Positions 10,449-36,289 of a DNA stretch of 64,000 nt are shown piece by piece. Location of the stretch: the IMG/VR virus record IMGVR_UViG_3300041964_000029, positions 1,850 to 65,849 of that record, one strand, 5' to 3'. This DNA is from a virus (lineage: Duplodnaviria; Caudoviricetes). Made by a program: the position numbers and the translations under genes. The first letter of the stretch is position 1. Every line of letters begins with the position of its first letter. Below the pieces are notes generated by a model. The model saw only the letters and a program-made list of their open reading frames with translations, searched no databases and was not told the origin of the DNA.

Positions 10449-12413
10449 TTAATCAGGATCAACTATATCAGCCATATTTAATGGGTATAGTTTTTTGCGT
10501 CGTTCATCCACATTATTAATAATTCTCTGAGATACTTTAGAATCCCGATCATCATTTGCAGCAGAAACAATTCTACCAGTAATTATAATATTCTCATCTT
10601 TAGCGTCTTTTGTAGATGAATGTTTTTTATCATACGCTTTTTGCAATTCCTTAATTTCTTCCATATTTGTTTCATATAATCCACCAATAAAAGATTCTGG
10701 CATAGTAGCTAAATAAAGTTTTTTAGCTTCCATCAAATCATTTACACCAATGATGTATTTTTTTTCATCAAATTTTCCATCAATCCATTGATCGATAACA
10801 AAAATTTTATTGGATTCTAAATTAGTACCAATATAAACGTCAGCAGCCATTTTATCTGCTGCAATAGTTTTTTCAATATGACCATAAGCACCAAGTAACA
10901 TTTTCCCGTGACGCAACTGAAACGGAAAATATTGGATAGCAATATTTAAGCCATTCCATTTAATTTTTTTCTGTGCCCTAGTTGCATCGTCACTTGTGAA
11001 AGAGTCTTTAATGATTCCTGTCTGTGAGGCTCTTAAACCGTTGTTTGGTGTTTCAGGTGTCAATGCACCAACTTCAGGTTGAGAAGGCATTAAAGACGCT
11101 TTAATGGGTACCCTACCAGGAATCATAAGCGGTTGTTCAGGTACAACAATAACAGATCCTAGATCGACACCCTCTTTTAAGGATTTTGCAACGTCTACAG
11201 GTGTTACAGCTTGAGTACCAATATATATTTGGGCTGTTTCAGCTTTTGTTTTTTCTACTGCTGATCTTTCACTTTCAGTTAATTGTAAAATGCTGTGATG
11301 TTCTATTTCATATTTTTCACTATCTTCAATACTTAAACCTAGTAGAAGATAATCAATAAGTTTGTATAGATTTGGATTCCAATCTGATACTTTTTTAGTA
11401 TCAACATAATCTGCCCATTGTCTTTCATCACCACGATCAACACTTTCAGAATCCGATTTAGATCCTGATAATCCAGATTTAGAGGCAGAAGAATTAAATA
11501 ATTTTGTGTAAGGTGTATCAGTCCTAGAGGCTAAAACTTTTTTAATATGTTCAGCAGCATTGATCACACCATCATAATTAGTTGTTAAGTTACTTACCTC
11601 TTCACCCATCTGCAAGAGAAGAGTTTTATGTAAGTTCCAACTATAATTCATTTGTCTAGATCTTTCTGCCAGTTGATCTCGTCCTTTTTGTGTTTTGCTT
11701 AGTTCTGTTAACTCTGCAATTTTGATCACAATTCTACTAAACTTTTCAACAGTTGAGGCGATCGCTGTATCAGTACGATCTAGATTTTTTAACGCTTCAT
11801 AGCATCTAACTAATACCGATATACCCCAATATTTATTCCTTCGCCATTGTCTTTTAGTTAATGGTTTAATACCATAAAACGGTAATATTCTAGATGCATG
11901 AATTGGTTCATCTGTAAATTTCAAACGATAATATAAAGGTTTAAGATATGTTTTAGATTGAGGATTTTTGTCTATTGAATCTACTTTTAATTCACCTGTT
12001 GAACCACCTTCTAAAATTGTGTAATAAAGTGGATCTCTAGCATATAGTTCAATCGGTTCACTTAAAGAGCCTTTAGCACCGATCAAGATGCCAGATCCGC
12101 CAACTAACCTAGCAATTTTAGAGGCATCTATAAAATGTTGAATAATGTTATTAACTCGGTCTTGTAAATATCCATTTATTTCAGCGTTAGGATATTTAAT
12201 TGTTGGTTTGTTTTGCCCCATAGATTGAGGCAATAGATCGATAACATTTGCTGCAAATGTATTTGTATCATACAAAGATTCAAAAATTTCTGTATAACGA
12301 TTGTATCCGTTTAAGCTGGCAGATTCAGGTATACCGTAAGTTTCAGATCCTAAGCTTAAACCTCTAACCATATCTAGATAGTTAGAATCATTTTGCAATC
12401 CTGTATCAGTCAT
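10449..12413 (-). CDS. portal protein (DUF1073/HI1409-like) with C-terminal inorganic-pyrophosphatase-like domain
   Basis: ARLVGGSGIL, IHASRIL, YWGISVL, DTPYTKLF motifs; tail YGHI..T..D....DVYIG...IFVIDQ...FDEKK. Confidence 0.8.
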   Translation of the reverse strand: MTDTGLQNDSNYLDMVRGLSLGSETYGIPESASLNGYNRYTEIFESLYDTNTFAANVIDLLPQSMGQNKPTIKYPNAEINGYLQDRVNNIIQHFIDASKIARLVGGSGILIGAKGSLSEPIELYARDPLYYTILEGGSTGELKVDSIDKNPQSKTYLKPLYYRLKFTDEPIHASRILPFYGIKPLTKRQWRRNKYWGISVLVRCYEALKNLDRTDTAIASTVEKFSRIVIKIAELTELSKTQKGRDQLAERSRQMNYSWNLHKTLLLQMGEEVSNLTTNYDGVINAAEHIKKVLASRTDTPYTKLFNSSASKSGLSGSKSDSESVDRGDERQWADYVDTKKVSDWNPNLYKLIDYLLLGLSIEDSEKYEIEHHSILQLTESERSAVEKTKAETAQIYIGTQAVTPVDVAKSLKEGVDLGSVIVVPEQPLMIPGRVPIKASLMPSQPEVGALTPETPNNGLRASQTGIIKDSFTSDDATRAQKKIKWNGLNIAIQYFPFQLRHGKMLLGAYGHIEKTIAADKMAADVYIGTNLESNKIFVIDQWIDGKFDEKKYIIGVNDLMEAKKLYLATMPESFIGGLYETNMEEIKELQKAYDKKHSSTKDAKDENIIITGRIVSAANDDRDSKVSQRIINNVDERRKKLYPLNMADIVDPD

Positions 12414-15036: not shown

Positions 15037-15094
15037 TTAATTAAAGAGTCTTTAATAACGCTTCTAAAACCTTCAATATTTACCAGGAATCATA

Positions 15095-20540: not shown

Positions 20541-20644
20541 TTCCTGTGTTAAAGAGTCTTTAATAAATAACAAGGAATCAAATTAAAATATAGTTAAAAC
20601 TTATGTTATAATTAGCATAAGTTGATAAAATCTCATGTTTAATT

Positions 20645-21223
20645 ATGAGTAGTGAAACGTTAAAACAGAAATTTTTAGAAAAGCTTTGTGAATCTGCTGA
20701 TATAGCGGAGGCTTTATCATCTGTTGATATGCAAATGCATCATCTAATGGCATGGTGCAAAAACGATGAAGAGTTTGACAAATCATATAGATCATTAAAA
20801 CATCTTATATGTTCTCATCTAAAGAGCGAAGCTTACATGGCTGCTATTAAGGCAGTAGTAACAGAATTGACTGATCCTATGAGTAGGAAAGTACTCACAA
20901 TAACAAATGAGATTATCTATGCTGTAGATGAAGATGGTGAAGAAAAACAAGTTGGCAGAAAGATCAAAACTGATACTAGAGATAGACCGATCGCAGCTTG
21001 GGCTATTAAAGAAGCTTTAACAACTGATAGCTTTTTAAAAGCGTTAGATCATATGGTATCTGATGGAGTTTTGAGCAATGATCAATATAAAAAGCTGTTA
21101 ACTGATGCTGATAAATGTACAGCATCTATGAGAGAAACTATTGGGCGTACTGATACTAATAAAGACTCTTTAACAGAAAGAACGGCAATTGCTCTTATCC
21201 GTCAAGCTGTTGAGGAGCATTGA
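20645..21223 (+). CDS. terminase small subunit (putative)
   Basis: N-terminal HTH-like region, W...D.EF; directly upstream of the large subunit. Confidence 0.65.
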   Translation: MSSETLKQKFLEKLCESADIAEALSSVDMQMHHLMAWCKNDEEFDKSYRSLKHLICSHLKSEAYMAAIKAVVTELTDPMSRKVLTITNEIIYAVDEDGEEKQVGRKIKTDTRDRPIAAWAIKEALTTDSFLKALDHMVSDGVLSNDQYKKLLTDADKCTASMRETIGRTDTNKDSLTERTAIALIRQAVEEH

Positions 21224-21230
21224 CAGACTA

Positions 21231-22669
21231 ATGCTTAAATCTATTCGTTCGAATGCTCAGTCTGCAATTACAAAAAAAGAAAAATCGGTTGTAGATATTT
21301 CAAAAATTGATGACTCTTATGCAGATAAAGATCCTTATTTCTTGAAATATCAAGTTGATAAAGTAAGAATTAAAAATGATAAAAACCTTAAATTAAAAGT
21401 CATAGTTTGGCGTAAATCTAGACAGATTGGCGCATCTTTTGTAATGTCTTATATTTGTTTTATGGATGCAATACAAGACATTAGAGATTGTGTTTATACA
21501 TCTTACAATAAAGACTCAGCAAAGCAATTTATTAAGATGTTCGTAAATGGGCTACACTTGCGAACATAGCATTCGAATTTGTTGCCAGAAGTCAGGCAAT
21601 CAACATTAATAACATTAATGTATTTGAGGTCAAATTTAATAATGGTAGAACAATCACAGCAATTGCTGGTAATGCCAATAACTTACGTGCGAAGCCTGGT
21701 AATGGCATTGTAATAGATGAGGCTGCATATCGGATTGAGCCTCTAGAAGATATAATCGCGGCTGCAATGGCTACTGTGATACACGGCGGATGGATCTTTA
21801 TTACATCTACTCATGCGGGTATTGACGCTGATTTTAATAAATTAATTCTAAAAATTGAAGCTGGTGAATTGCCTTATGAATTAGTTACTACAACTTTTAG
21901 AGATGCGATCGCTGATGGTTTATATAAGGTTATATGTAATAAAAATAAGATTGAATGGACTTTAGAAGGTGAATTAGAATGGATCAAATCCGTTTATGCA
22001 TATTATGGAATTAGAGCGAGTGAAGAATTAGACGTTTTACCAGGAGATTTTAAGGGAGGTGATAAAATATTTTCACCTTCAATCTTCACTAAATATCATG
22101 TTACTAACTACGATGGATTAGTCTATTTTAGATATTATGACATTGCCTCATCTACGGATGCTGATGCTTACTACTCTGCTGATGTTTTAGTTGCTTATGA
22201 TGAAAGCATAGAAAAACTAATCATCCTAGATTACAATGCTGCACAACTAACACCAATGGAAGGTGATACAGATATGGAGGACGTAGTTAAGCGATCGCCT
22301 TATGGCTGCATACATTTAATCGAAATTGAACCAGGAGCATCCGGTATCAAGTATGTAGAGTATATGAAAGATAGATTAGATAATTACACTGTCTTTGGTT
22401 ATCGTCCATTACTGAGCAAATTACAAAGGGCGATACCTGTTGGCAATGCTGCTAATAAAGGTAAAGTGGTAATTTCTGATATGCTCTATCACGATAATAA
22501 CGGTGTAGAAAGATGTGAGTTTGTAGAAATTATCAGAAAATTTGATGGAAAAAAACAACCTTTAGTTAATGACTTAGTTGATTGCCTATCAGGTATATAT
22601 GACTACTTCAGACAAAATTATGGCGATAGCAGCAAAGCAGAAAAATATGATTCGTTATTTGGTGAATAA
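21231..22669 (+). CDS. terminase large subunit (frameshift near 21535, probably a sequencing error)
   Basis: Walker A KSRQIG, Walker B VIDEAA in the shifted frame, ITSTH, nuclease YDIA and NDLVD; adding one A at attaagatgtt joins the frames. Confidence 0.9.
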
Positions 22670-22764
22670 TTCCTGTGTGTTGCCTCTGAGCCTCTTAAAG
22701 ACTCTTTAGAAGGTATAAAGGTACAATCTACCAGGAATCAAGTTAAACACGTTATAAGGATTCT

Positions 22765-22845
22765 ATGACAGCGTTAATTGTTGTAATTTCAATCTTTTTG
22801 ATAGTTGTGTTAGCAGGAATGGTTAAGGACTATTTAGGGTTATGA
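22765..22845 (+). CDS. 26-aa single-TM peptide MTALIVVISIFLIVVLAGMVKDYLGL
   Basis: Hand-translated; AAGGA RBS. Confidence 0.6.
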   Translation: MTALIVVISIFLIVVLAGMVKDYLGL

Positions 22846-22928
22846 AAGCATTTTTCATTGTTGTTTTAATTCTACTCATCCTATTAACTATCGGATTACT
22901 TCTAGATAGTTGGCTCAATCCACCTTAA
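22842..22928 (+). CDS. 28-aa single-TM peptide MKAFFIVVLILLILLTIGLLLDSWLNPP
   Basis: Hand-translated; ATGA overlap with the previous ORF. Confidence 0.6.
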   Translation: MKAFFIVVLILLILLTIGLLLDSWLNPP

Positions 22929-23014
22929 AAGCCTCTTAAAGACTCTTTAGAAGTTCTAAAGGTACAATCTACCAGGAATCAAGTTAAACACGTTATAGAG
23001 GCATATAGGAGCAA

Positions 23015-23113
23015 ATGATACTAACAATCATGATCGGATGTTTAATATTTCTAGGTTTGTTTTTCATTTTTGTTATGCTGATTGAGGCTGTTAACCGCTA
23101 TTACAGGAATTAG
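23015..23113 (+). CDS. 32-aa single-TM peptide MILTIMIGCLIFLGLFFIFVMLIEAVNRYYRN
   Basis: Hand-translated; AGGAG RBS. Confidence 0.65.
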   Translation: MILTIMIGCLIFLGLFFIFVMLIEAVNRYYRN

Positions 23114-23118
23114 AGAGA

Positions 23119-23214
23119 ATGTTAGGATTTGTTGCCGTTTATGTAATCGTTGCAGTCTTATTTGGTGTAGGCTTATTTTTCAGGATGTTGGTTAAACTAC
23201 TGTTAGATAAATAA
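23119..23214 (+). CDS. 31-aa single-TM peptide MLGFVAVYVIVAVLFGVGLFFRMLVKLLLDK
   Basis: Hand-translated; starts 5 nt after the previous stop. Confidence 0.6.
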   Translation: MLGFVAVYVIVAVLFGVGLFFRMLVKLLLDK

Positions 23215-23217
23215 ATC

Positions 23218-23313
23218 ATGATAATACTCTTGTTTATTGCCTACACGATCATATGGGTAACACTTGTGGGGTACGTCCTCTGGCATTTAATAAAAAGTTA
23301 TGGGAGAAAATAG
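23218..23313 (+). CDS. 31-aa single-TM peptide MIILLFIAYTIIWVTLVGYVLWHLIKSYGRK
   Basis: Hand-translated; starts 3 nt after the previous stop. Confidence 0.6.
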   Translation: MIILLFIAYTIIWVTLVGYVLWHLIKSYGRK

Positions 23314-23343
23314 TACTGCATTACTAGAGTACAAATACCCACT

Positions 23344-23376
23344 AAAAAAAAACCCACTAAGCTTAGTGGGTTTTTG
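23344..23376. terminator. bidirectional intrinsic terminator
   Basis: A-tract, acccactaagcttagtgggt, T-tract, at the convergence of late and early units. Confidence 0.85.
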
Positions 23377-23530
23377 TCTGCCTCTTAAATTGGATCTGAT
23401 GCTGCTAGTTCATAACCTTCTAACCACCAATCAAACTCTTCACAGTCTTCAAACCAGGGATTATCCTCTCTTAATTCTTTATTCCAGAATGCATCATAAC
23501 CTTGATTAATTATCTGCTCTTTTGTTTTTC

Positions 23531-23818
23531 TCATTTTGAAACATCCTTTAAGAAACTCTGTCTGCATAGCTGATAATATTCGGAGAAAGCTGCTGTGATC
23601 CGCGATCGCTCATTCGCCCATTTTTTACCAGGAAAATTAATATTGACAAATTTAGCACCATACGCGAAACCCCATTCTAAATTCTCCATCTGCTTAAGGA
23701 TTACTCGAATATCAGATTTACGATATCCGGCTTGTGTTAAATAATTTGTAATCGCGGTGGTTAAAAACTTGCGATCGGTTGCTTCTGTGTGTTGTACTGA
23801 ATCTGGAAAGTATACCAT
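23531..23818 (-). CDS. hypothetical early protein
   Basis: 95 aa behind a promoter repeat unit. Confidence 0.7.
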   Translation of the reverse strand: MVYFPDSVQHTEATDRKFLTTAITNYLTQAGYRKSDIRVILKQMENLEWGFAYGAKFVNINFPGKKWANERSRITAAFSEYYQLCRQSFLKDVSK

Positions 23819-23955
23819 GATGATTCCTGTTGGCTCCGGTGTAGTTTGTTTTCTCTTGTCTTTACCAAGTATAAGCTAAAGACTCTTTAATCGTTCACTA
23901 TTTTAGAAAAGAACTGTCACACACTCGCTATGTGACAGTTCTTTTTTTTCTATTC

Positions 23956-24165
23956 TTAAATTACTGCAACTGTAGCGCGTGTAGAAATTTGTCCAGCAAT
24001 TCTATAAGCCTTATCAATGTGTAATGTAATAGCTTTTGTTTTATCGCGGCAAAAATGAAATCCGTTAAATTCTTGCTCTGAATCCAATTCATTACACAGG
24101 TAGAAATTTTTGCCCCAAAGTTCTTTGTTCCAAGTCAGTGATGTAAATAAAATTCTAGCTTGCAT
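23956..24165 (-). CDS. hypothetical early protein (start revised to the ATG after the RBS)
   Basis: CCGGAG-N-ATG; the MVKTRE extension comes from the repeat. Confidence 0.65.
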   Translation of the reverse strand: MQARILFTSLTWNKELWGKNFYLCNELDSEQEFNGFHFCRDKTKAITLHIDKAYRIAGQISTRATVAVI

Positions 24166-24288
24166 TGTTTTCGGCTCCGGTGTAATTTCTCTTGTCTTCA
24201 CCAAGTATAGTCTAAAGACTCTTTAATCGTCCACTGTTTTAGAAAAGAACTGTCACACACTCGCTATGTGACAGTTCACTAGTTGAGC

Positions 24289-24714
24289 CTATGCCCAATT
24301 ACGAACAATGATTTGAGCAGGATTAACAGCCCTACGCTGTTCTAAAAAGTATTCTTGCTCTAAAGCGTTCAAAGCAGCCTGAATCGTAGCATAGCTTAAG
24401 CCTGTAACCGTGTGTAGCGCTTGCATGACTGGATCACTTAGATAGCTGCTATCATCTGCTTTAAGACTTTTTAAGACGGTCTTAATCACTTCTTTGGTGT
24501 CAACGTTCCAAGCTTCAGTAATATCACAAACAACATTCTTTTTAATGCGTCCAGTTTGCTCCATCAATTGCCAGATTTTAGAAGCATATTTTTTCTCAAC
24601 ATTTACCGAGCAGACCATCACATCTAAAAAAGTTTTTTTAGTTATGGTTGAACCTGTTGAAAGAAAGCTAAATGAAGCAGCAGAAGTGAAGTTGTCAACA
24701 GTTAAAGTAGTCAT
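24289..24714 (-). CDS. hypothetical early protein (possibly winged-helix)
   Basis: 141 aa between two repeat units. Confidence 0.7.
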   Translation of the reverse strand: MTTLTVDNFTSAASFSFLSTGSTITKKTFLDVMVCSVNVEKKYASKIWQLMEQTGRIKKNVVCDITEAWNVDTKEVIKTVLKSLKADDSSYLSDPVMQALHTVTGLSYATIQAALNALEQEYFLEQRRAVNPAQIIVRNWA

Positions 24715-24836
24715 TGTTTTTGGCTCCGGTGTTTTCTCTTGTCTTCACCAAGTATAGGTTAAAGACTCTTTAATCGTCCACTGTTTTAGAAAAGAACTGT
24801 CACACACTCGCTATATGACAGTTCAGCGATCGCCGT

Positions 24837-25184
24837 TTACTTTGTTGCTAAAATTTTACCAATAACCGTGTAGCGTCTTAATGTCATTGCTGAGAAATTT
24901 CTTCTTTTGTAATACTCAGCCCGATCTAATTCGCATAGTAACGGCTGATCAGCCGTTATCTTCTGCATAGCAATCCAGAGGATAAATCGACAGTTACAGC
25001 TACTCATTAATAAGCCTATGCCTTCATATCGATCTAACAGCCGTTTGTTATAATCACCCTGTAACCATCGCTTCATTGACAAATATGAACTATTCGATTC
25101 ATAAGAATCACCAACAATTCGTTTAACTAAGTACTTAGGATCTGTCAAATCTTCTACTGTCGTTTTTGCTGCTGTAAGGCTCAT
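24837..25184 (-). CDS. hypothetical early protein
   Basis: CCGGAG RBS. Confidence 0.65.
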   Translation of the reverse strand: MSLTAAKTTVEDLTDPKYLVKRIVGDSYESNSSYLSMKRWLQGDYNKRLLDRYEGIGLLMSSCNCRFILWIAMQKITADQPLLCELDRAEYYKRRNFSAMTLRRYTVIGKILATK

Positions 25185-25262
25185 TACTTGCTCCGGTGTA
25201 AACTGTACGGTTAACTTGATTCAGATACCTTGTAGGGGCATATATGCCCCTATCCTCAAACG

Positions 25263-25511
25263 TTAACGGTAAACATCTAACCCTTCTAACTGCTGACCAG
25301 CTTCTAAGATTTTACCATTGATCAATTTTTCCTCTAATCGTTGCAGTAGTCTAGAGGTGTCATCATCAAAAGGTGAAAAATCATTAGTTTCTAGATTAAG
25401 GACTGAACAATTTTCACCTGTAGAAACAACTGTTAATTTACTTGAAAGAACTTCAGGATTACCGTTAACAGCAGATAGGAAACGATTAAGATCAACAACT
25501 GACACTTGCAT
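25263..25511 (-). CDS. hypothetical early protein
   Basis: Behind a degenerate promoter unit; followed by a hairpin near 25232. Confidence 0.65.
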   Translation of the reverse strand: MQVSVVDLNRFLSAVNGNPEVLSSKLTVVSTGENCSVLNLETNDFSPFDDDTSRLLQRLEEKLINGKILEAGQQLEGLDVYR

Positions 25512-25572
25512 GATTTTTGAGCCTCTAAATTTTTTCCGTCTTTACCAAGTCTAGTCTAAAGGTTCTTTAATG

Positions 25573-25821
25573 TCAAGAGATTAGACCTAATTCTTTTAAC
25601 TCCTGATTAAGTGCTATTGAACAAGAATCAAAATCCGGAAAATTTACAGCACCAGTACGGCGGATTAATGTTTCATATTCTGGAGGACGTTTAAGAAATT
25701 CTAAAACACCTGTACTTAAATTATACTGAGCCTCACGCAAAATGATATTATCGCTGTCTAATTCAAAAATAAAAACCTCTTTAGCTTTAACAGAAATACT
25801 AAAATCGAAAACAGTACCCAT
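25573..25821 (-). CDS. hypothetical protein
   Basis: 82-aa ORF, co-oriented with neighbours. Confidence 0.55.
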   Translation of the reverse strand: MGTVFDFSISVKAKEVFIFELDSDNIILREAQYNLSTGVLEFLKRPPEYETLIRRTGAVNFPDFDSCSIALNQELKELGLIS

Positions 25822-25960
25822 CTATTGAACCAATAAACTATATAAATATTCTACCACATATATAAGAAAAGACAGGCAGAATAAAATCTACCTGTCTTGT
25901 TAACACCGGATGTTGGTCTGCTAGTCCCAACTGTTTTAACCTTTTCAGGTAAGCTAATTT

Positions 25961-26173
25961 TTAAGACTTCGGATCCATTCGGTAGAGAATCTGATCTTTT
26001 GTTTCGCTTATTTCTGCCTCTAGAGTTTTCTGACCTTCTAAGGCTATTGCAGCAGCACCAACCATTGATCGTTTTGTAGCCTTAGAATACAAACGGTGAT
26101 ATGCTTCTTTTTTCTGGTAGAGGCTGTATAGATGATCTATCAGTTGTTCGTTAGTCAGTAGAGATAGCATCAT
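25961..26173 (-). CDS. hypothetical coiled-coil protein
   Basis: AGGAG RBS; overlaps the upstream gene. Confidence 0.6.
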   Translation of the reverse strand: MMLSLLTNEQLIDHLYSLYQKKEAYHRLYSKATKRSMVGAAAIALEGQKTLEAEISETKDQILYRMDPKS

Positions 26174-26504
26174 TTCTCCTAATACGGATTTTTTTGTCAG
26201 CTTGTTTAGGTGTCAGGTTATACAATTGCATATATTTCTGCTCAATCTGCTTAACTAATGGTGTCAGCTTAAAAGCCAATTCAAAAATTTCAACAGGTGC
26301 AGAAATTTTTATATTTGATTTACCGATTTTTCCTCCAACAACTACTTTGATTAAATCTGAGATTACATCATCAACATCAAAGATAATATACCCATCTGCG
26401 ATGTGTTGCAAAATCTCGAATGATTCCTGTGTAACACTTTCTAAAGTTGTCTTAATCTCGTTAGTGTCAGTGTTGAGTGTTGCAGCCCGATTAGTGTTAG
26501 CCAT
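26151..26504 (-). CDS. hypothetical early protein
   Basis: Behind a promoter unit. Confidence 0.65.
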   Translation of the reverse strand: MANTNRAATLNTDTNEIKTTLESVTQESFEILQHIADGYIIFDVDDVISDLIKVVVGGKIGKSNIKISAPVEIFELAFKLTPLVKQIEQKYMQLYNLTPKQADKKIRIRRNDAISTD

Positions 26505-26560
26505 TTTTTGCTCCGGTGTAATTTGTTCTTAACCAAGTATAATCTGAAGAGTCTTTAACG

Positions 26561-26779
26561 TCAAGTAGATTTAGACTCTAATTTTTCGGCATATTCTTTT
26601 GCCTCTTTTTGACTGTTCAGCACACTAGCAACCTTCACACCATCTTTTTCTAGATTGTATGCCTGTGGAGTATTACAACCCATAAACAGGGGCACTATTT
26701 TATAACGTCCACATCTACTTAAAACCCAACCTTGCCTACTCATAGACCATTTAACTAACGTATCCTGTTTACGTGGCAT
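26561..26779 (-). CDS. hypothetical early protein
   Basis: CCGGAGG RBS. Confidence 0.65.
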   Translation of the reverse strand: MPRKQDTLVKWSMSRQGWVLSRCGRYKIVPLFMGCNTPQAYNLEKDGVKVASVLNSQKEAKEYAEKLESKST

Positions 26780-26808
26780 AATGTCCTCCGGTGTTTTTCC
26801 TCTATCGG

Positions 26809-27123
26809 TTAACGTGTATAAGCTGTTAGATCAATTTTGCTGGAAGCGATATATTTGTCGATTTCAGTTTGTAGATTTTTTGCTGCTAATTTTTCCTCTG
26901 TATTTTGACGATTAAAACTAAAGTTATCAACAGCATGATCAATCATCGCTTTAAGCTTTGCTAATTCTTCATGATACGAATAAGTTGGTCTTGCGATAAC
27001 TGAGAAAATATTTTCGAGTGATTCAATATGTGAAATATTCCATTGATTATCGAATATCGCATAACCGTTATAATCTAACATTTCGATCGCGATAGATACG
27101 GCTGATTCTCTGAATGATTTCAT
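26809..27123 (-). CDS. hypothetical early protein
   Basis: Behind a TTGACA/TATACT promoter unit. Confidence 0.7.
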   Translation of the reverse strand: MKSFRESAVSIAIEMLDYNGYAIFDNQWNISHIESLENIFSVIARPTYSYHEELAKLKAMIDHAVDNFSFNRQNTEEKLAAKNLQTEIDKYIASSKIDLTAYTR

Positions 27124-27225
27124 GATTTTTGGCTCCGGTGTTTTCTCCTGTCTTCACCAAGTATAGGCTAAAGACTCTTTAACTGTCAAGATATTAGTTA
27201 AAGAATCTTTAGAGAGTATTAATAC

Positions 27226-27462
27226 TTAAAATTTAGATTCTAAGCAAAAATAATGTGATTCATCTGTTTGACTATAGCCAACAATAGCACGCGGATTATG
27301 ATATTTACCATTCGTCTGATACTTAGCAAATATTCTTAAGATTGCTAATTCAGAACCAAAGGCATAATAACAACCTGAAATAATTTCAACTCTGATAGAT
27401 TCTTTAGCAATATCCTCAAAAGTTTTTTGTACTTTAACTTCGTTAGTGGTTTGATTAGACAT
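27226..27462 (-). CDS. hypothetical early protein (start revised)
   Basis: ATG after CCGGAG RBS. Confidence 0.7.
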   Translation of the reverse strand: MSNQTTNEVKVQKTFEDIAKESIRVEIISGCYYAFGSELAILRIFAKYQTNGKYHNPRAIVGYSQTDESHYFCLESKF

Positions 27463-27586
27463 TGTTTTTGGCTCCGGTGTGTTTTCTCTTGTCTTCACCA
27501 AGTATAAGCTAAAGACTCTTTAACTGTCTACTGTTTTTGAAAAGAACTGTCACACACTCGCTATGTGACAGTTCAGCGATCGCTGT

Positions 27587-28093
27587 TTACTTTGTCCAAG
27601 CTTCACTATGAATAATTGCTTTCATCGCAGCAGCATCCGTTACACCTTCTAACCAATTTTTCTGTAAGGCTACATAATCAACTAAGGATGAAACACCAAA
27701 GAAAGTCCGAGCGTATGCAATGGTATGTTTACAGGATTTTATATCATTGATCCGTAACCCGTTAGGACTGCCGTATGATTTACAGTTACAATGTACAGGG
27801 TTAGACTGCCATCCTGTAGTAGTTGTACCATCATTTTTAAATTCAACGCTTTTAGAGGCTACTATAGCCCGTTGTACTAATTTTCTTAATAGTGCATGAA
27901 CACTCAGAAAAGTAGAGCATTTTGAACGCTTGCCATTCGCCACAGCTAAGTATGTAACCTGATAAGCACCATTTTTGCAGACCATAGAACTAATGACAAC
28001 TACAGCACCAAGTTCATGTTGATCCATAATCAATTCTCCGAGCGTGGTATTGGAAAAGTAGTTGGTGCTGATGACAGGCTTTTGATTAGACAT
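27587..28093 (-). CDS. SWIM zinc-finger protein
   Basis: CNC...CKH (CxC-Xn-CxH) motif. Confidence 0.7.
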   Translation of the reverse strand: MSNQKPVISTNYFSNTTLGELIMDQHELGAVVVISSMVCKNGAYQVTYLAVANGKRSKCSTFLSVHALLRKLVQRAIVASKSVEFKNDGTTTTGWQSNPVHCNCKSYGSPNGLRINDIKSCKHTIAYARTFFGVSSLVDYVALQKNWLEGVTDAAAMKAIIHSEAWTK

Positions 28094-28214
28094 TGTTTTT
28101 GGCTCCGGTGTAGTTTGTTTTCTCTTGTCTTCACCAAGTATAAGCTAAAGACTCTTTAACTGTCTACTGTTTTTGAAAAGAACTGTCATACACTCGCTAT
28201 GTGACAGTTCACCC

Positions 28215-28403
28215 CTACTTAATGATATTGCTGTTATCCTGATCCACGTTGCTTAAAATTTTGTCCTCTTCCTCTAATACCTCAATCATTGAAGCATATC
28301 TTGGTTCAACTTCTGCAACACGTTCTAAATCTTCTTTTGAAAGATCTTCACCATTTTCAAACTGTTCAATCAGTTCATCATCAGTCTTTTTAGATTGGCT
28401 CAT
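28215..28403 (-). CDS. small acidic hypothetical protein
   Basis: 62 aa, D/E-rich; GGAG RBS. Confidence 0.6.
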   Translation of the reverse strand: MSQSKKTDDELIEQFENGEDLSKEDLERVAEVEPRYASMIEVLEEEDKILSNVDQDNSNIIK

Positions 28404-28471
28404 TGTTTTAGCTCCAATGTTTTAGTTGATTGAACTGTCACATAGTTAACTATGTGACAGTTCAACAGCTT

Positions 28472-28651
28472 TTAATTTTTCCCGTACACTGTAGAATGAT
28501 GCTCAACTTTTGAAACGAATCTTGTCTTTTTGATTGTGTTGATAACCTGATCAGGTGTAACACTTTCGGGGACGGTGTAAGTTTCATTAAATGTAGCTTG
28601 TCCACCTACAGGATAAACTTTAACAATAATTTGAATCATTTGTACTGACAT
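28472..28651 (-). CDS. 59-aa hypothetical early protein (not in the ORF track)
   Basis: MSVQMIQIIVKVYPVGG...STVYGKN between a repeat unit and a hairpin variant near 28432. Confidence 0.65.
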   Translation of the reverse strand: MSVQMIQIIVKVYPVGGQATFNETYTVPESVTPDQVINTIKKTRFVSKVEHHSTVYGKN

Positions 28652-28779
28652 TGTTTTTGACTCCGGTGTAGTTTGTTTTCTCTTGTCTTCACCAAGTATA
28701 GGTTAAAGACTCTTTAATCGTCCACTGTTTTAGAAAAGAACTGTCACACACTCGCTATGTGACAGTTCAGAGGAATCAT

Positions 28780-29166
28780 TTACAATTCGGATGCTGCTAT
28801 CTCATCAAACTCCGTAGTATCAACATCATCGAGATCTGTAGAATCATCTTCATCAAAATCAATCGGTTTTATCATGCCGTAAACCTCTATCACTTTAAGT
28901 AATAGCCAATGGCGTTTTAGATAGATAATGTAATTTTGTGAAGGGTTTAGATTTTGACCTAAGCAAATAATTTCGGTATAACCAGTCATCTGTTGAGCCA
29001 TTACGTGTAGCCTATAAGGTTCAACACTCATCCATAAGATGCAATCTTTATTATCATTATTTGTCATGCCCCATAGCTGAGAATCTGAACGATCTAGATC
29101 GCTTAGTTGATTGTAGACTTTTCTAGCAATTTTTTTGTCTGCAAACTTGAAGATAAAATCCGTCAT
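28780..29166 (-). CDS. hypothetical protein with acidic tail
   Basis: AGGAG RBS. Confidence 0.65.
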   Translation of the reverse strand: MTDFIFKFADKKIARKVYNQLSDLDRSDSQLWGMTNNDNKDCILWMSVEPYRLHVMAQQMTGYTEIICLGQNLNPSQNYIIYLKRHWLLLKVIEVYGMIKPIDFDEDDSTDLDDVDTTEFDEIAASEL

Positions 29167-29360
29167 AATTTCTCCTAAATGATTCCTGTGTGAATGAATT
29201 TAACTATCTACCAGATCCGCGATGATCAGACATTGTTTTTGCCTCCGTTTTGTGTTTTCTCTTGTCTTCACCAAGTATAGACTAAAGACTCTTTAACTGT
29301 CTACATATTTTCAAAAGAACTGTCACAAACTCGCTATGTGACAGTTCTTTTCAGGAATCA

Positions 29361-29732
29361 TCACAAGCAATGATATATAACCTGTTTTAGTACAGACTCA
29401 GCACCAAATTTATAATTAAATTCGCTTGCGTCTTTTTGTTTTCTTGTCCAATTTGAAGTTTTTCGTGTAAAACTCTGATCACCACACCAATAAAATTTAA
29501 CCGATTCTATGCCTTTACTGATAACGTGATAAACTTTTTCACCATCATCAATTTTTTCTAACACAGGCTCCGAATAATCCGGATCGATGATTAACTCTAT
29601 TCTTTTGTCTGCAACTAAATTATCAATACTTAATTCTTTGGCACAATCTATAGCTTTTCGCAAATTGTCAAATATATTTTCAGTCGAATTTCTGATGCCG
29701 TCTTTTGTGTAATGAAAGATAACATGAATCAT
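29361..29732 (-). CDS. hypothetical early protein
   Basis: Between repeat units. Confidence 0.7.
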   Translation of the reverse strand: MIHVIFHYTKDGIRNSTENIFDNLRKAIDCAKELSIDNLVADKRIELIIDPDYSEPVLEKIDDGEKVYHVISKGIESVKFYWCGDQSFTRKTSNWTRKQKDASEFNYKFGAESVLKQVIYHCL

Positions 29733-29856
29733 TTTTTTGGCTCCGGTGTAGTTTGTTTTCTCTTGTCTTCACCAAGTATAGGCTAAAGACTCTTTAATTG
29801 TCCACTGTTTTAGAAAAGAACTGTCACACACTCGCTATGTGACAGTTCAGCAGCCT

Positions 29857-30147
29857 CTATTTTGGTTTAGATAGCATAGCGATTACAGCGTTTGGCTTAT
29901 CACCAGATACGATGATTTTGAAACTGTCACCAGCGTTAAAAAGACCATTACCAGGACGTTGGCAATCGGTAGTCAGCTTAACAACAAACGAATGGTTAAA
30001 TGTACGATTGCCACCATAAGTAACTATTACAGGTGTAATTTCTTCAACAATACCGCTAAACCCGTATTTTTTGAAATACAAACCAGTGATATGATCACCA
30101 ACCGCAATTTGATCTAAGTTGATTTCATCCTGAAGTAATACTGACAT
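29857..30147 (-). CDS. hypothetical early protein
   Basis: Between repeat units. Confidence 0.7.
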   Translation of the reverse strand: MSVLLQDEINLDQIAVGDHITGLYFKKYGFSGIVEEITPVIVTYGGNRTFNHSFVVKLTTDCQRPGNGLFNAGDSFKIIVSGDKPNAVIAMLSKPK

Positions 30148-30240
30148 TGTTTTTGGCTCCGGTGTAGTTTGTTTTCTCTTGTCTTCACCAAGTATAGGTT
30201 AAAGACTCTTTAATCGTCAAGAGTCTTTAACAAATATTTT

Positions 30241-30462
30241 CTAAAACTCAAAATCAGTAGTTAACCATATGTATAACTCAGAAAGTGATTCAAATAATTT
30301 TTGAAAATCGTTTCTTGCATAATCACTAGACAATAGGATCTTAGCTTCACCAGCATCGTTAACCCGTTCAATATGGTAGTAGTTAAAGTTGGCGATCGCT
30401 TGACAAGTTTCATAAGTTAATTCTCTCATTTTTGGCTCCGGTGTAATCTGCTGTGTACTCAT
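30241..30462 (-). CDS. hypothetical protein (alternative start 30429)
   Basis: Contains the repeat-type RBS internally. Confidence 0.55.
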   Translation of the reverse strand: MSTQQITPEPKMRELTYETCQAIANFNYYHIERVNDAGEAKILLSSDYARNDFQKLFESLSELYIWLTTDFEF

Positions 30463-30951
30463 TCAATTTACCCCTAAAGATCTGACAAACTTAAGTATTT
30501 TAGTGATCTTCAGAGGTTCTTTATAAATGTGCAGAGTAATATAAAGTTTCAAGAAATCAAACGGATTCCTACATACACATATTTGAACCGTGCTAGTGAC
30601 AGAATCGGATGCCTGTGCCTCAGTCCAGAATCTAGGGATATGTAGCCAAGAATCATCCTGAATCCAACCCTTAAATTTCATACGGTTGTTAAAGGTTAAA
30701 ACATCGTTAATTGCTCCGACCATATTATCAAGATCTTGTTTTCTACCTAGCTTTTTAGGGTTAACCCTGAAGATATAAACCAGACAAAAAAACTTAGGGA
30801 ATTTTTGCGGATATGCGTCGATCATTTTTTTTCTGAATTTTGTTTGCCATTGTCTATAAGTCCCATCGCTCGAATGAGTCATATTACCAGAAGCGCCGAT
30901 CATGCCTCTTGGTTTAGACATTGGATCGATCGCTATTTTAATACTAATCAT
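30463..30951 (-). CDS. rusA: RusA-family Holliday junction resolvase
   Basis: P.SKPR N-terminus, QDLDNM....ND.L and IQDDS catalytic motifs. Confidence 0.8.
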   Translation of the reverse strand: MISIKIAIDPMSKPRGMIGASGNMTHSSDGTYRQWQTKFRKKMIDAYPQKFPKFFCLVYIFRVNPKKLGRKQDLDNMVGAINDVLTFNNRMKFKGWIQDDSWLHIPRFWTEAQASDSVTSTVQICVCRNPFDFLKLYITLHIYKEPLKITKILKFVRSLGVN

Positions 30952-31177
30952 TTGTTAAAGACTCTTTAAGGGTTTTCATCTGGTCTTCTGTAGCCTCAAT
31001 CAATTCTTGAGTGTGCAAATAATAACCTTCACCAATCGGAAAAACTTCTGTGATATTTTTCCAATTTACGATTGTTAAAGCGGTGTTAATGTCTGTAGCT
31101 GTAACGGTTATTGGGTGAATAACAACTAAGCCATTTTTTACCGCTTTAACATATCCTCCAAACATTTTATATGTCAT
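30944..31177 (-). CDS. hypothetical protein
   Basis: Overlapping operon arrangement. Confidence 0.6.
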   Translation of the reverse strand: MTYKMFGGYVKAVKNGLVVIHPITVTATDINTALTIVNWKNITEVFPIGEGYYLHTQELIEATEDQMKTLKESLTND

Positions 31178-31512
31178 GGCTGCTTCCAGATGTTGATCAT
31201 GTCTTCAATATGGCACGGCATACCAGCTATTAAGGCATATAAACCAGATTCAAAATCACCATGCAGGTTAGCCACCATAAGCTTAAACCATTCTATAGAC
31301 TGTTCAGCCGTGTTTGGTAAAGCTGTATAGCCTTTAGCGTACCAATGCGATAGCGTTATACAACCACAAATCACATAGTAGCTGTTAGGATAATGTAACT
31401 GTGATTCAGCCAACTTTAATTGTTTCTTTTCACATTCTTCAAATATTTCTTTAGTACATCCTAAACCAATGCAACGTTGCAGCCAATAATCTCTTTCTAC
31501 TTTTGTGTTCAT
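31174..31512 (-). CDS. hypothetical protein
   Basis: Overlapping operon arrangement. Confidence 0.6.
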   Translation of the reverse strand: MNTKVERDYWLQRCIGLGCTKEIFEECEKKQLKLAESQLHYPNSYYVICGCITLSHWYAKGYTALPNTAEQSIEWFKLMVANLHGDFESGLYALIAGMPCHIEDMINIWKQP

Positions 31513-31742
31513 TATTCTGCCTGTTCGGGTTGAGATGTATACAGTTGAGTGAAAAAGCTTTTTAGATATTCGGTACTCCTATTTTGATCGCGTCTTAAAA
31601 CACCTCCATACTTCACAGCACCGAATGAGTGAGTAATATCATATATCATCTGTACCTCTTCCATCGTTAACGGATACTGTATACATATATCCCTTAGATT
31701 TGCCTCTATAAGCCTCTTTAAGGTGTCTTGATCAATGTTCAT
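31512..31742 (-). CDS. hypothetical protein
   Basis: Overlapping operon arrangement. Confidence 0.6.
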   Translation of the reverse strand: MNIDQDTLKRLIEANLRDICIQYPLTMEEVQMIYDITHSFGAVKYGGVLRRDQNRSTEYLKSFFTQLYTSQPEQAE

Positions 31743-32176
31743 TACTTATCTACTCCTAATAGTCTTAAAACCCGTCTAGGCAGTATTTCGCCCCTATCGT
31801 ATGCCTCTTTATATTTCTGCAACGCTTTATCCCGAATTCGGATCTTTTTCCTCATCTCCTTTTGCTCTTTCTCGCGCCAATACGAATCAAAATCTATCTT
31901 CTGAGCCTCTAGAAAAATAGGCGGATTAGCTAGAATTTCATCGATCAGCGATCGCCCAATCTTAAAAGCTTTTGAATTAATCGGTGTTTTATCTTTAGGA
32001 TAAAAAACCAGTCCATTATCATGCATCTTGATCACAGCTTGTCTAAACCGTGTGTCTAAAGGCTCATAAGGTACAGGATAGCGCGTTATCTTTACCCATT
32101 TAGCCGTATGTGGGTTAAACTTCCATAGACTTAACCAAACCGTTTTTGAATCTGTCTTAACTAATAGTAGTGCCAT
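31742..32176 (-). CDS. hypothetical protein; C-terminus resembles the MTase C-terminal extension
   Basis: YKEAYDRGEILPRRVLRLL vs YKQMHEAGETIPDRVLSLL. Confidence 0.65.
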   Translation of the reverse strand: MALLLVKTDSKTVWLSLWKFNPHTAKWVKITRYPVPYEPLDTRFRQAVIKMHDNGLVFYPKDKTPINSKAFKIGRSLIDEILANPPIFLEAQKIDFDSYWREKEQKEMRKKIRIRDKALQKYKEAYDRGEILPRRVLRLLGVDK

Positions 32177-32232
32177 TTTTAAGCCTCATAGGGTGATGAG
32201 AGGTGAAGCAATTCACCTCTCATCATGTATAA

Positions 32233-32439
32233 CTAAACTGTAAAACCTGCTTCAATAATGCATTTTTGCGGTTTGATAGTCCAGACTGACCAAGCTGTTT
32301 TGCTTTCAAAAATCTTTTTTAGAAAAGCTTCACCGAAATGTTTTACCGCTTCATCGTATGTAAAGTATAACTCAGTACTATAGATATTACTGAAATTTAA
32401 TGATGTAGCGTCAATATTGAATTGGGTTAGGTAGGACAT
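32233..32439 (-). CDS. hypothetical early protein
   Basis: Behind a repeat unit; followed by a hairpin near 32195. Confidence 0.65.
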   Translation of the reverse strand: MSYLTQFNIDATSLNFSNIYSTELYFTYDEAVKHFGEAFLKKIFESKTAWSVWTIKPQKCIIEAGFTV

Positions 32440-32567
32440 TGTTTTTAACTCCGGTGTAGTTTGTTTTCTCTTGTCTTCACCAAGTATAGGTTAAAGACTC
32501 TTTAATCGTCCACTGTTTTAGAAAAGAACTGTCACACACTCGCTATGTGACAGTTCAGAGGAATCAT

Positions 32568-32756
32568 CTAAACAGGGGATTTTGGGACTAATACAACTGT
32601 ATCAGGTTTAAGATCTTTATGTGACATACCGGATCGACCACTAAAATATCCATCCGAATCTTTATAAAAATTCCATTCCATAGAATCTTTTAGGGTGAAT
32701 CTATCACCTGTTCTTAAATCACTGTATGTTGTCTCTTGCCATTGTTGCTGAGTCAT
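32568..32756 (-). CDS. hypothetical early protein (start revised)
   Basis: ATG after the RBS of the repeat unit. Confidence 0.6.
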   Translation of the reverse strand: MTQQQWQETTYSDLRTGDRFTLKDSMEWNFYKDSDGYFSGRSGMSHKDLKPDTVVLVPKSPV

Positions 32757-32836
32757 TTTTTTTTTGCTCCGGTGTAGTTTATTTTCGCTTGTCTTCACCA
32801 AGTATAAGTTAAAGACTCTTTAATCGTCAAGAGTAT

Positions 32837-33391
32837 TCAGAAAAATCTTTTTAAGTACTTTCTCACATGACTATCATAAATACGTTCTGAGCTAATCCTC
32901 CGTGTATTGTTAGCAAGCGTTAAAATCTCTTGATACACCTGTGTTAAAGGTAAATCATTTATACGGCTGCAACGTTCCATAACAACAGCACTATTAAGAC
33001 TCAGATTATTTTGTCTAATCTGTTCTACCAACCAATCCGGCATTGTAGATACACGGATCAACTGACCTATATAAGCGGTTGATCTTCCTGTCAATGCTAC
33101 ACAAGCTTGTATAGCTGCTGAACGTGCAAACTTTTTACTTTTGCCTGATTCCTTTGCGATGTTCAAAGCATCTTTGTAGAAGCTTGTTACCCTAGCAGAC
33201 AGAGTTAAAACGTCCTCAGAATATTTGCAGGGTGCATCAATCGTTAGGCATACTAAAACACCATCACTATCAGCATTATCAATCGCTATTGTTTGATCTG
33301 GCTGTTGCAACCATTCGTTATGATCAGAATTAAATACTGATACTTTTAGACTGATTGATCCGGATTTAGTTTGAGCAAAAAACTGTGTCAT
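32837..33391 (-). CDS. ParB-type HTH protein lacking an intact CTPase domain (paralogue of 34066-35646)
   Basis: AAIQACVALTGRSTAYIGQLIRVSTMPDWL aligns with IATQACVVLTGKSQAYVGQLIKLATMPDWL. Confidence 0.75.
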   Translation of the reverse strand: MTQFFAQTKSGSISLKVSVFNSDHNEWLQQPDQTIAIDNADSDGVLVCLTIDAPCKYSEDVLTLSARVTSFYKDALNIAKESGKSKKFARSAAIQACVALTGRSTAYIGQLIRVSTMPDWLVEQIRQNNLSLNSAVVMERCSRINDLPLTQVYQEILTLANNTRRISSERIYDSHVRKYLKRFF

Positions 33392-33396
33392 CTTAC

Positions 33397-33594
33397 TTAT
33401 GCCTCTAATCTAATAATCTGGCAGTCTTCACCATGTCTAGAAATTAAAAAATTTTTCAGATTTTCGATTAAAACAGATTTAATAGTTACATCTCTATAAC
33501 CTCTAAAACATCTGATAGATCGATACTCAGATACTATATAACCTTTTGAAACTTTTTGTATATGATATTCAGAAGAATTAATTCTAATACTCAT
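33397..33594 (-). CDS. hypothetical early protein
   Basis: Behind a repeat unit. Confidence 0.6.
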   Translation of the reverse strand: MSIRINSSEYHIQKVSKGYIVSEYRSIRCFRGYRDVTIKSVLIENLKNFLISRHGEDCQIIRLEA

Positions 33595-33711
33595 TTTTGG
33601 CTCCGGTGTTTTCTCTTGTCTTCACCAAGTATAGGCTAAAGACTCTTTAATCGTCCACTATTTTAGAAAAGAACTGTCACACACTCGCTATGTGACAGTT
33701 CAGAGGAATCA

Positions 33712-33936
33712 TTATCGAAGTTTACACATCGTAATGACGATCGCCAATTCTCTTATGCTATCAACCGAATGTTGGCGATACTTTCTAGCGTCCTCCACAT
33801 TATCAAATTTCACAAAGTTATTGCCAGCATAGCCGTAAGATGCCCAATCACCGCTAGGGTGTACTACTGATACATTACCAGTATTAGGATCGATTTTAGC
33901 AGGTGCATATTGGGTCAGAGAGTGATGAACTAACAT
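33712..33936 (-). CDS. hypothetical early protein
   Basis: Between repeat units. Confidence 0.65.
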   Translation of the reverse strand: MLVHHSLTQYAPAKIDPNTGNVSVVHPSGDWASYGYAGNNFVKFDNVEDARKYRQHSVDSIRELAIVITMCKLR

Positions 33937-34003
33937 AATTTTCGGCTCCGGTGTTTTTGCTTGTCTTCACCAAGTATAAAGCCTAAAGAGTCTTTAAGTC
34001 AAT

Positions 34004-34037
34004 AAAAAAGTGGCACACTGTTAATGTGCCACTTTTT
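34004..34037. terminator. intrinsic terminator after the ParB-like gene
   Basis: aaaaaagtggcacac-tgttaa-tgtgccactttttg hairpin with tracts on both sides. Confidence 0.8.
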
Positions 34038-34065
34038 GCTACTTTAGAGAAAACCGGATCAAATG

Positions 34066-35646: not shown

Positions 35647-35756
35647 TGTTTTTGTCCTTTAAGTTTGAGGTGTTTTGTTTTCTTGTCTCTTCACTTAATA
35701 TAAGTGATCTAGTTTTAGAAGTCAAGCTATTTTAGAAAATAGTTTTTGAAGACTCT

Positions 35757-36167
35757 TTAACACAGATCACCCACTTTAAGCACACGTTCAACTTGGTGTA
35801 ACTCAGCAGCCGTTATAAATGTCGATCCACCTCTCTTGGCTGCATTATAACATAATTGATAGACTTTACCAATTGGATGTTGTGAAATTTTACTAACTCT
35901 AATCATCATTAGAGCAACAGCAATATTCAAATCATCACTACTCACCTTCATAGCCAACCATAAAGGCAGATGCATTAGTTCTAACATCTGATAGACGTAC
36001 AACGAATTACAGTTGAAATGTTCAACACATTTACTAACGGCTGCTGTATCGGCATGAATGCCAGTACTACCAACACGCATATAACATTCGGAATAGTACC
36101 GATCATAAGCATCACTAACTTTTTGAGCAAAAATTAAAAGATCTGTTTTCTGTTTTGTCTCTGTCAT
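35757..36167 (-). CDS. ParB-type HTH-only paralogue
   Basis: AAVSKCVEHFNCNSLYVYQMLELMHLPLWL....L....A..M pattern. Confidence 0.6.
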   Translation of the reverse strand: MTETKQKTDLLIFAQKVSDAYDRYYSECYMRVGSTGIHADTAAVSKCVEHFNCNSLYVYQMLELMHLPLWLAMKVSSDDLNIAVALMMIRVSKISQHPIGKVYQLCYNAAKRGGSTFITAAELHQVERVLKVGDLC

Positions 36168-36289
36168 TTGTCTATGATTCCTGTGTGAAGGTGTTCATCT
36201 ATTAATATGCCACAGGTTAAGCCAAAAGTAAAGAGTCTTTAGAAAATAAATCCTAAAGACTCTTTAAGCGATCGCTTACCATAAGCGGT

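Follow-up and report, generated by a model that had tools for sequence, protein, structure and literature searches.

Bacterial small inner-membrane proteins of up to 50 residues (aa), such as AcrZ, MgtS, KdpF, and CydX, are encoded by single chromosomal genes and have known partner proteins, while other small hydrophobic products are found among the type I toxins (Hok, Ldr, Ibs, TisB, and Fst) and among phage holins, the latter being roughly twice as long as the peptides considered here, or longer. These peptides are encoded by an array of five micro-ORFs (open reading frames) that tiles positions 22765-23313 (+ strand) of a 64,000-nt window of phage DNA, namely bases 1850-65849 of the 65,849-nt IMG/VR virus record IMGVR_UViG_3300041964_000029, classed as linear and with an estimated completeness of 87%. 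The bacterial proteins are the subject of a review (PMC12648545, accessible part), and the accessible text on F1-cluster mycobacteriophages describes two holin-like proteins, one of them of 88 aa (PMC13056207). In T4-type phages, promoter-early stem-loop (PeSL) cassettes are described, in the accessible parts of the reports, as places where recombination inserts or deletes genes (Arbiol et al. 2010, PMC2839356; Comeau et al. 2014, PMC4122927). Coliphage mEp021 (MH706966.1) carries five unannotated hydrophobic ORFs of 23-29 codons, with one ATGA overlap, at 26406-26884 in the gap just before terS; in the accessible portion of the mEp021 paper (PMC11893012) the word "transmembrane" is not used. 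Similarly, the accessible portion of a census paper on phage membrane proteins (PMC4641393) contains nothing on tandem arrays, and a literature search confined to main texts found no description of such membrane micro-gene arrays in phages.

The five ORFs, of 26, 28, 32, 31, and 31 codons and all with ATG starts, are arranged in a 2+3 layout behind two copies of a putative control unit. Each of them is very probably a real and separately translated micro-gene, whose product is predicted to span the membrane once and to end, at its C-terminus, in a short tail that is polar or basic; that the peptides are transcribed, translated, and inserted into the membrane, and what role they have, is deduced from the sequence. 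The features of the locus are as follows.

22689-22756, + strand: control unit copy 1, with the palindrome TAAAGACTCTTTA at 22696-22708, a -10-like TACAAT at 22722-22727, and CAGGAATCA at 22732-22740.
22765-22845, + strand: ORF1, 26 aa, one predicted transmembrane helix, tail KDYLGL, AAGGA Shine-Dalgarno (SD) sequence 4 nt before the ATG.
22842-22928, + strand: ORF2, 28 aa, one predicted transmembrane helix, tail DSWLNPP, start overlapping the ORF1 stop (ATGA).
22930-22997, + strand: control unit copy 2, beginning 1 nt past the ORF2 stop, with the palindrome at 22937-22949, TACAAT at 22963-22968, and CAGGAATCA at 22973-22981.
23015-23113, + strand: ORF3, 32 aa, one predicted transmembrane helix, tail EAVNRYYRN, AGGAG SD sequence 3 nt before the ATG.
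23119-23214, + strand: ORF4, 31 aa, one predicted transmembrane helix, basic tail RMLVKLLLDK, 5-nt gap after ORF3.
23218-23313, + strand: ORF5, 31 aa, one predicted transmembrane helix, basic tail KSYGRK, 3-nt gap after ORF4, no SD sequence.
23348-23375, both strands: bidirectional intrinsic terminator that separates the rightward late block from the leftward small genes; its inverted repeat (14+14 nt) is perfect and bordered by runs of A and of T.

The initial annotation had described five tightly coupled single-pass hydrophobic ORFs in a 2+3 arrangement, set behind a duplicated 67-bp unit and ending at a bidirectional terminator. The five ORFs, their layout, the ATGA overlap, both short gaps, and the terminator were all confirmed; the duplication also stands, the two copies being 97% identical and spaced by 241 nt, while the length of the unit is corrected to 68 nt. 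The space between units and terminator is fully tiled by tightly coupled ORFs. Maximal 18-residue hydropathies of the peptides range from 2.49 to 3.41 (Kyte-Doolittle), and their tails are basic in ORF3-5, and short and neutral with one acidic residue in ORF1-2. When the ten peptide pairs were compared with shuffles, only ORF1-ORF2 (end-to-end alignment, score 41 versus a null of 21.5, sd 4.4; reached in 0/500 shuffles) and ORF2-ORF4 (0.02) scored above them, this being weak evidence of paralogy since the shuffle null ignores the hydrophobic-then-polar layout that all share. ORF4 and ORF5 also lie in the same frame, separated by TAA ATC, so that read-through of the stop would give a 64-residue product with two helices and a basic tail, which is the size and shape of a class II holin; the ORF4 stop is kept in all four metagenome runs compared.

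Thymine-rich sequence yields transmembrane-like ORFs, and the region 22757-23320 is 37% T, a risk that the initial annotation had itself raised. In a census of the six frames of the window, 165 ATG ORFs of 24-45 aa were found, seven of them at the hydropathy threshold (18-residue Kyte-Doolittle mean of at least 2.4), and five of these seven form the array. Among 3000 mononucleotide shuffles of the region, 2956 contained no such ORF, 44 contained one, and none contained two or more, versus five observed; chance is excluded as the source of the hydrophobic ORF array. Anti-SD duplex energies upstream of ORF1-4 are -6.0, -5.8, -6.5, and -4.3 kcal/mol, which places them among the best 2-10% of the 1157 ATGs of the + strand, whereas long ORFs (at least 100 aa) have a median of -3.9 kcal/mol at their first ATG. 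ORF5 shows an energy of +0.4, its start lying 3 nt past the ORF4 stop. The frequency of T at codon position 2 in the five ORFs (0.50-0.66) adds no independent evidence, since it restates their hydrophobicity. An exact look-up in a collection of 15 billion proteins found none of the five peptides, indicating that gene callers have missed these ORFs, in agreement with the earlier remark that the ORF track had missed them.

These data bear on the possibility that the ORFs are non-functional or barely functional, either young proto-genes or chance frames in T-rich DNA, transcribed only as the 3' tail of a late operon. Their T content, a codon usage that is not gene-like, the lack of homologues in any search made, and the dispensability of the first cassette (below) are consistent with it. 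Considering on the other side that (i) five of only seven such ORFs in 64 kb sit head to tail on one strand, (ii) no shuffle gives even two, (iii) four of the five have SD sites in the top 10%, (iv) overlaps and gaps of 3-5 nt are typical of coupled genes, and (v) each ORF group stands behind a unit conserved at 97%, this explanation appears improbable.

The control units share their parts with other regions of the phage. In the 64 kb, the 13-nt palindrome TAAAGASTCTTTA has 55 exact copies, and 71 if one mismatch is allowed (for example at 24213-24225 and 15042-15054), and an 18-nt version of it has 30 matches versus 0.19 expected. Six of the 71 sites are followed 12-19 nt downstream by TWCAMT, including those of both units, of the capsid gene (15042), and of a polB-like gene (53334); 15 fall in the spacer of near-identical leftward promoters of the form T(T/G/A)GAC(A/G)-N17/18-TATACT, 18 lie at most 12 nt upstream of an ATG, and 32 belong to no class, many of these being inside genes according to the ORF map. 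Some palindrome sites are in frame inside genes. Regarding the motif CAGGAATCA, 30 exact copies are found (18 on the + strand and 12 on the - strand, some inside genes), of which those at 15084, 53371, 23829 (-), and 9789 (-) end 2 nt before the ATGs at 15095 (capsid gene), 53382, 23818 (-), and 9778 (-), respectively. It can be regarded as a shared ribosome-binding motif and contains GAATC, another GANTC site. The unit component CCAGGAATCA likewise precedes start codons at a distance of 2 nt, in the capsid gene, in 53382, and in other genes. The 68-nt unit thus appears to be assembled from the phage's own recurring transcription and translation signals, and this recurrence upstream of other phage genes supports both a regulatory nature of the unit and the reality of the genes downstream. 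The earlier description of these units as promoter-like was right in part: their three parts recur upstream of other genes, the capsid gene among them, which makes a regulatory function plausible, while they do not constitute full sigma-70 promoters. When units and leaders were folded and compared with shuffles (z of -0.48, -1.12, -1.08, and +1.31), no hairpin was detected above them.

Contigs of four metagenome runs were compared over 20600-25200. An 892-nt contig from run X5 (depth 4.75, no other differences) joins 22715 to 22957 and so skips 241 nt, which correspond exactly to one unit and ORF1-2; at the joint, 41 nt are common to both sides. Contigs from runs X2 and X4 break at the two repeats, as expected if both paths exist. 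The X5 contig reads as a natural one-cassette variant, arisen by recombination within the 41 nt shared by the units, or as the ancestral state; because it lacks exactly one unit and ORF1-2, cassettes seem to be gained or lost through the repeats, and the array is accessory and cassette-like. The four runs show no differences across 22727-23338, and this invariance leaves no substitution pattern to be read. The cassette structure, together with the natural deletion variant, offers a ready experimental handle.

Taken together, these features led us to favour, tentatively, a model in which the peptides are late, co-transcribed membrane micro-proteins that tune lysis timing, a role we consider somewhat short of an even chance and rank ahead of modulation of host proteins or exclusion of other phages. 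ORF1-2 and ORF3-5 would form two cassettes, each headed by its control unit (palindrome at the -35 position, TACAAT, and CCAGGAATCA), and, since no terminator lies between the terminase gene and them, they would also be the last cistrons of the rightward structural and packaging transcript, which would end at the bidirectional terminator. The repeated units would act as recombination points at which a cassette is lost or gained as a block. Positively charged segments of membrane proteins tend to stay inside (the positive-inside rule), so the products of ORF3-5 would be expected to have their N-terminus outside and to keep their C-terminus in the host cytoplasm. During the middle-to-late phase the peptides would build up in the host membrane and alter its integrity or energisation, as small holin/antiholin-like or potential-dissipating helpers of an accessory rather than essential kind.

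Several observations weigh against this model. Synonymous codon usage of the five ORFs sums to -9.8 bits, unlike that of long phage genes (for comparison, the same peptides recoded with background codons give -20, sd 8, and with gene-like codons +17.6, sd 6.4), and ORF5 alone reaches -13 bits. The phage can do without ORF1-2, as the loss of cassette 1 in X5 shows, and a sigma-70 consensus scan did not report the 68-nt units, which have no -35 hexamer. The neighbours of the array are the large terminase subunit (TerL) and the terminator, with no adjacent endolysin, and three larger multi-helix membrane ORFs (37546-38241, 38736-39122, and 40918-41292) could be the real holins. To our knowledge, no holin is as short as these peptides, which have about half the length of the smallest. 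A lysis cassette may also lie in the missing ~13% of the genome, given that the record is estimated to be 87% complete. In favour of the model, on the other hand, no canonical lysis cassette was seen: Pfam and/or PHROG scans covering 51 of the 94 mapped ORFs, most of the other 43 being shorter than 130 aa, detected neither endolysin nor holin; a six-frame search of the record with four endolysin Pfam families found none of them, and searches of PDB sequences with five larger ORFs of no assigned function yielded no endolysin. The analogous array next to the packaging genes of mEp021 likewise speaks for it. Relatives were sought through TerL: a single query of viral contigs found none, an alignment found 21 loci in viral contigs, the seven best at 40-50% identity, and a second alignment against metagenome and genome contigs found none; the two closest TerL relatives stand at 64% (P0002) and 53% (P0003) identity. 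In the seven best relatives, again to the disadvantage of the model, no hydrophobic micro-ORFs follow TerL, the gene order being another one with structural genes in that place, and a 55.8-kb record (G001), examined whole, has no array.

An alternative is that real membrane micro-proteins bind specific host membrane proteins and thereby bring about superinfection exclusion or host takeover, a possibility to which we give less weight and which we hold to be rather unlikely. By analogy with bacterial small membrane proteins that regulate larger partners, the targets might include transporters, phage receptors or DNA-entry machinery, sensor kinases, or respiratory or photosynthetic complexes. The ORFs look accessory, as judged from the loss of cassette 1, their atypical codons, their own control units, and their place at the end of an operon closed by a terminator; eight of the ten peptide pairs are not above shuffles, as expected if each peptide had its own target, and the mEp021-type array is likewise unannotated. 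On the contrary, no family match points to a target, and the array shares motifs with capsid-type upstream regions, while exclusion genes are usually expressed early or from prophages.

Homology searches bear on three further readings. Against Pfam and PHROGs, the best E values of the peptides were 0.17-0.44; in NCBIfam, ORF3 reached E 0.079 with the Ecr family small membrane protein, below the cut-off; Rfam returned nothing at gathering score and weak matches on the terminator hairpin. The ESM Atlas gave a best score of 0.82 for ORF3, below a meaningful level. A phmmer search of ORF3 against 1.84 billion representatives produced one match (E 1e-4) in a 573-aa protein with seven repeated helix matches, which was taken as compositional and set aside. 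ORF5, the only peptide searched by tblastn, found in 50,697 phage records a best E of 2 (Aeromonas phages), and blastn of 21000-25000 against phage records gave no match. On these grounds the peptides appear to resemble no known family convincingly.

The first of these readings holds that the peptides mimic or replace small thylakoid subunits (PetL, PetN, PetG, Psb, or Psa) and in this way change the photosynthesis of the host. Their size and shape fit, and so does the probable cyanobacterial host, the HIP1 element (GCGATCGC) being found 17 times in the window versus 0.2 expected. The resemblance to PetL, PetN, and Psb peptides suggested by the initial annotation was nevertheless not borne out, as no Pet, Psb, or Psa family was matched at E ≤10 in Pfam or NCBIfam, and phmmer of ORF3, ORF4, and ORF5, the ones searched, matched no PDB chain at E ≤10 although PDB holds such complexes; we regard this reading as very unlikely.

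Still less probable, in our estimation, are type I toxin-antitoxin-like modules, in which an antisense RNA restrains each hydrophobic toxin. Peptide size and hydrophobicity (the maxima given above) agree with them, and weak promoter-like sites on the minus strand are present at the 5' ends of ORF1 and ORF3 (22787-22760 and 23044-23015, 9/12 each). Tandem duplication is common at such loci, according to the accessible part of PMC2887945, while here only the upstream unit is duplicated and not the ORFs. The leaders of type I toxins sequester the ribosome-binding site; those of the array are short and unstructured, with strong SD sequences for ORF1-4. Promoter-like sites are not in excess (12 versus 7.2, sd 3.2, in shuffles), and no toxin family was matched at E ≤10 in Pfam or NCBIfam, so that the toxin interpretation put forward earlier finds no backing in family, leader, or promoter.

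At the lowest end of the scale we place the idea that ORF5 is a true member of the CcmD-like family (TIGR04391), involved in heme or cytochrome c handling. ORF5 scores 25.9 bits (E 7e-6) with an NCBIfam curated cut-off of 24, and in a six-frame search of the record with TIGR04391 it is the sole match (23.6 bits, or 24.1 with its frame neighbours). This family is a specific one: in a sample of 81 Bacteroidota genomes, 26 are over the cut-off, with at most one match per multi-megabase genome. Nonetheless, ORF5 matches only profile positions 3-21 of 36, which correspond to the helix (IIW-x5-Y), and its C-terminus does not have the charged stretch, D-(R/K)-(R/K)-(L/V)-K-x-(L/I)-E in type, that all ten extracted Bacteroidota members carry. 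Pfam showed no match for ORF5, cyanobacteria use another cytochrome c maturation system, and no cytochrome c maturation gene was noticed among the 51 ORFs in general scans of this phage. The match is treated here as a helix-level resemblance rather than as membership.

The palindrome of the control units extends the analysis to the rest of the genome. In the units it stands at the place of a -35 box, an arrangement seen in activator-dependent promoters such as the middle promoters of T4. In the leftward promoters it sits in the spacer, which would be the position of a repressor. Phage phi29 p4 offers a case of one factor acting on both promoter classes, and one palindrome-binding factor could, in an attractive model, shut the leftward promoters and open those of the unit type. 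The leftward block 23800-37600 (-) contains at least 15 near-identical composite units between small ORFan genes, each with a promoter bearing the palindrome in its spacer, a leader of ~50 nt, and a GGAG SD sequence; a terminator hairpin, GAACTGTCACA...TGTGACAGTTC plus a T tract, precedes most of them, and of the six copies scored five are identical and one has a single mismatch. A GANTC site forms the core of the palindrome, and among the phage genes are those of an N6_N4 DNA methylase (55473-56366) and of a D12 adenine methylase (47627-48448); GANTC is found 273 times versus 183 (sd 14.5) in shuffles, and GATC 370 times versus 174 (sd 12). The palindrome was present in none of the five related IMG/VR records searched, and unit and promoter patterns gave no matches in viral contigs. 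A pattern of palindrome plus TATACT, seen at 13 metagenome loci and one genome locus, was rejected as chance, each locus having a single palindrome, no HIP1, and no blastn similarity to the window. A bolder proposal would join these elements: a phage without a canonical holin, whose peptides are the smallest phage membrane-permeabilising or host-complex-targeting effectors, in cassettes shuffled via the 68-nt units, and a GANTC-palindrome factor that switches them on and shuts ~15 early promoters. As a whole we deem it improbable.

Concerning the setting of the locus, the rightward genes at ~12.7-22.7 kb encode a DUF2213 protein, an HK97-type major capsid protein, a cement protein, a tail-fibre-like protein, and the small and large terminase subunits, and family scans show that the phage also encodes a portal. 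Leftward genes converge from the opposite side on the hairpin at 23348-23375. Immediately before the array lies:

21189-22669, + strand: terminase large subunit gene, the last long gene of the rightward structural and packaging block, with PHROG terminase large subunit matches for both of its pieces.

A 1-nt indel near 21535 splits TerL in this record: runs X2, X4, and X6 have contigs with one more G following 21535, and the frame that starts at 21536 is open and carries on the alignment to full-length relatives (458-511 aa). A second 1-nt difference, an extra A after 21212, was observed at the terS/terL junction. The portal protein (Phage_portal_3) is encoded at 10449-12413 on the - strand, opposite to the remaining structural genes, and its C-terminal domain matches Pfam InPase (inorganic pyrophosphatase) with E 1e-18. 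Also, a 120-nt unit is repeated 33.1 times at 815-4789 with 99% identity, equivalent to a 40-residue repeat, between an ORF at 409-1965 and a tape-measure-like ORF at 4814-8881 (PhageMin_Tail), and represents either a single giant repeat protein or an artefact of assembly. Besides the HIP1 excess, CGATCG is found 29 times in the window versus 3.0 expected, and the two together are a cyanobacterial genome signature carried by the phage. DNA of the window is present in six biocrust metagenome runs from two studies, and, because the HIP1 excess comes together with this source, the host is probably a cyanobacterium of soil crust.

Standard annotation does not see genes below ~35 codons, and yet small membrane peptides are able to regulate membranes or to breach them; the array is a clear and statistically solid case of such genes, in a phage whose host is probably a cyanobacterium of soil crust, a group whose phages have hardly been studied. 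No less noteworthy than the peptides are the PeSL-like architecture and the genome-wide palindrome, the latter providing a testable model of an early-to-late transcription switch.

In comparison with the bacterial small inner-membrane proteins, the peptides agree in size, in their single helix and short charged tail, and in being overlooked by annotation; they differ in that five different ones are gathered in a phage operon and match no family, the nearest being Ecr (E 0.079). With type I toxins they share small size, hydrophobicity, and the often tandem arrangement (Fozo et al. 2010, PMC2887945, accessible part), without the structured leader or any family match. As in holins, which are late-expressed membrane proteins with a charged C-terminal tail, several of which may stand side by side, ORF3-5 carry basic tails and would be expressed late; on the contrary, no endolysin is adjacent here or was found in the record by family scans and the four six-frame families.

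The resemblance to PeSL cassettes, as these are described in the accessible parts of the reports cited above, is found at two levels. Short repeated regulatory cassettes precede small ORFan genes in both cases, and the X5 contig shows such a deletion between the two 68-nt units. The leftward block, with its composite units of a promoter with the palindrome in the spacer and a terminator hairpin, has the same layout as one PeSL subclass (PMC2839356, accessible part), and would thus represent the PeSL architecture known from T4-type phages in an unrelated phage, this one being not T4-like as judged from its HK97-type capsid family, portal, and TerS/TerL. The two 68-nt units, on the other hand, have neither a stem-loop terminator nor a -35 box, and their palindrome, A+T-rich and with a single central base, cannot form an RNA hairpin.

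Finally, the array and that of mEp021 both consist of tandem, tightly coupled, and unannotated one-helix micro-ORFs beside terminase genes. No sequence similarity was detected between them in the ORF5 tblastn search (best E 2), and their contexts differ, the present array following terL and being split into two cassettes with their own 68-nt units, while that of mEp021, a temperate coliphage rather than a phage of a probable cyanobacterial host, precedes terS. Rows of one-helix micro-genes beside the packaging genes of unrelated phages, as in these two, may therefore reflect a widespread and unstudied class of phage functions.

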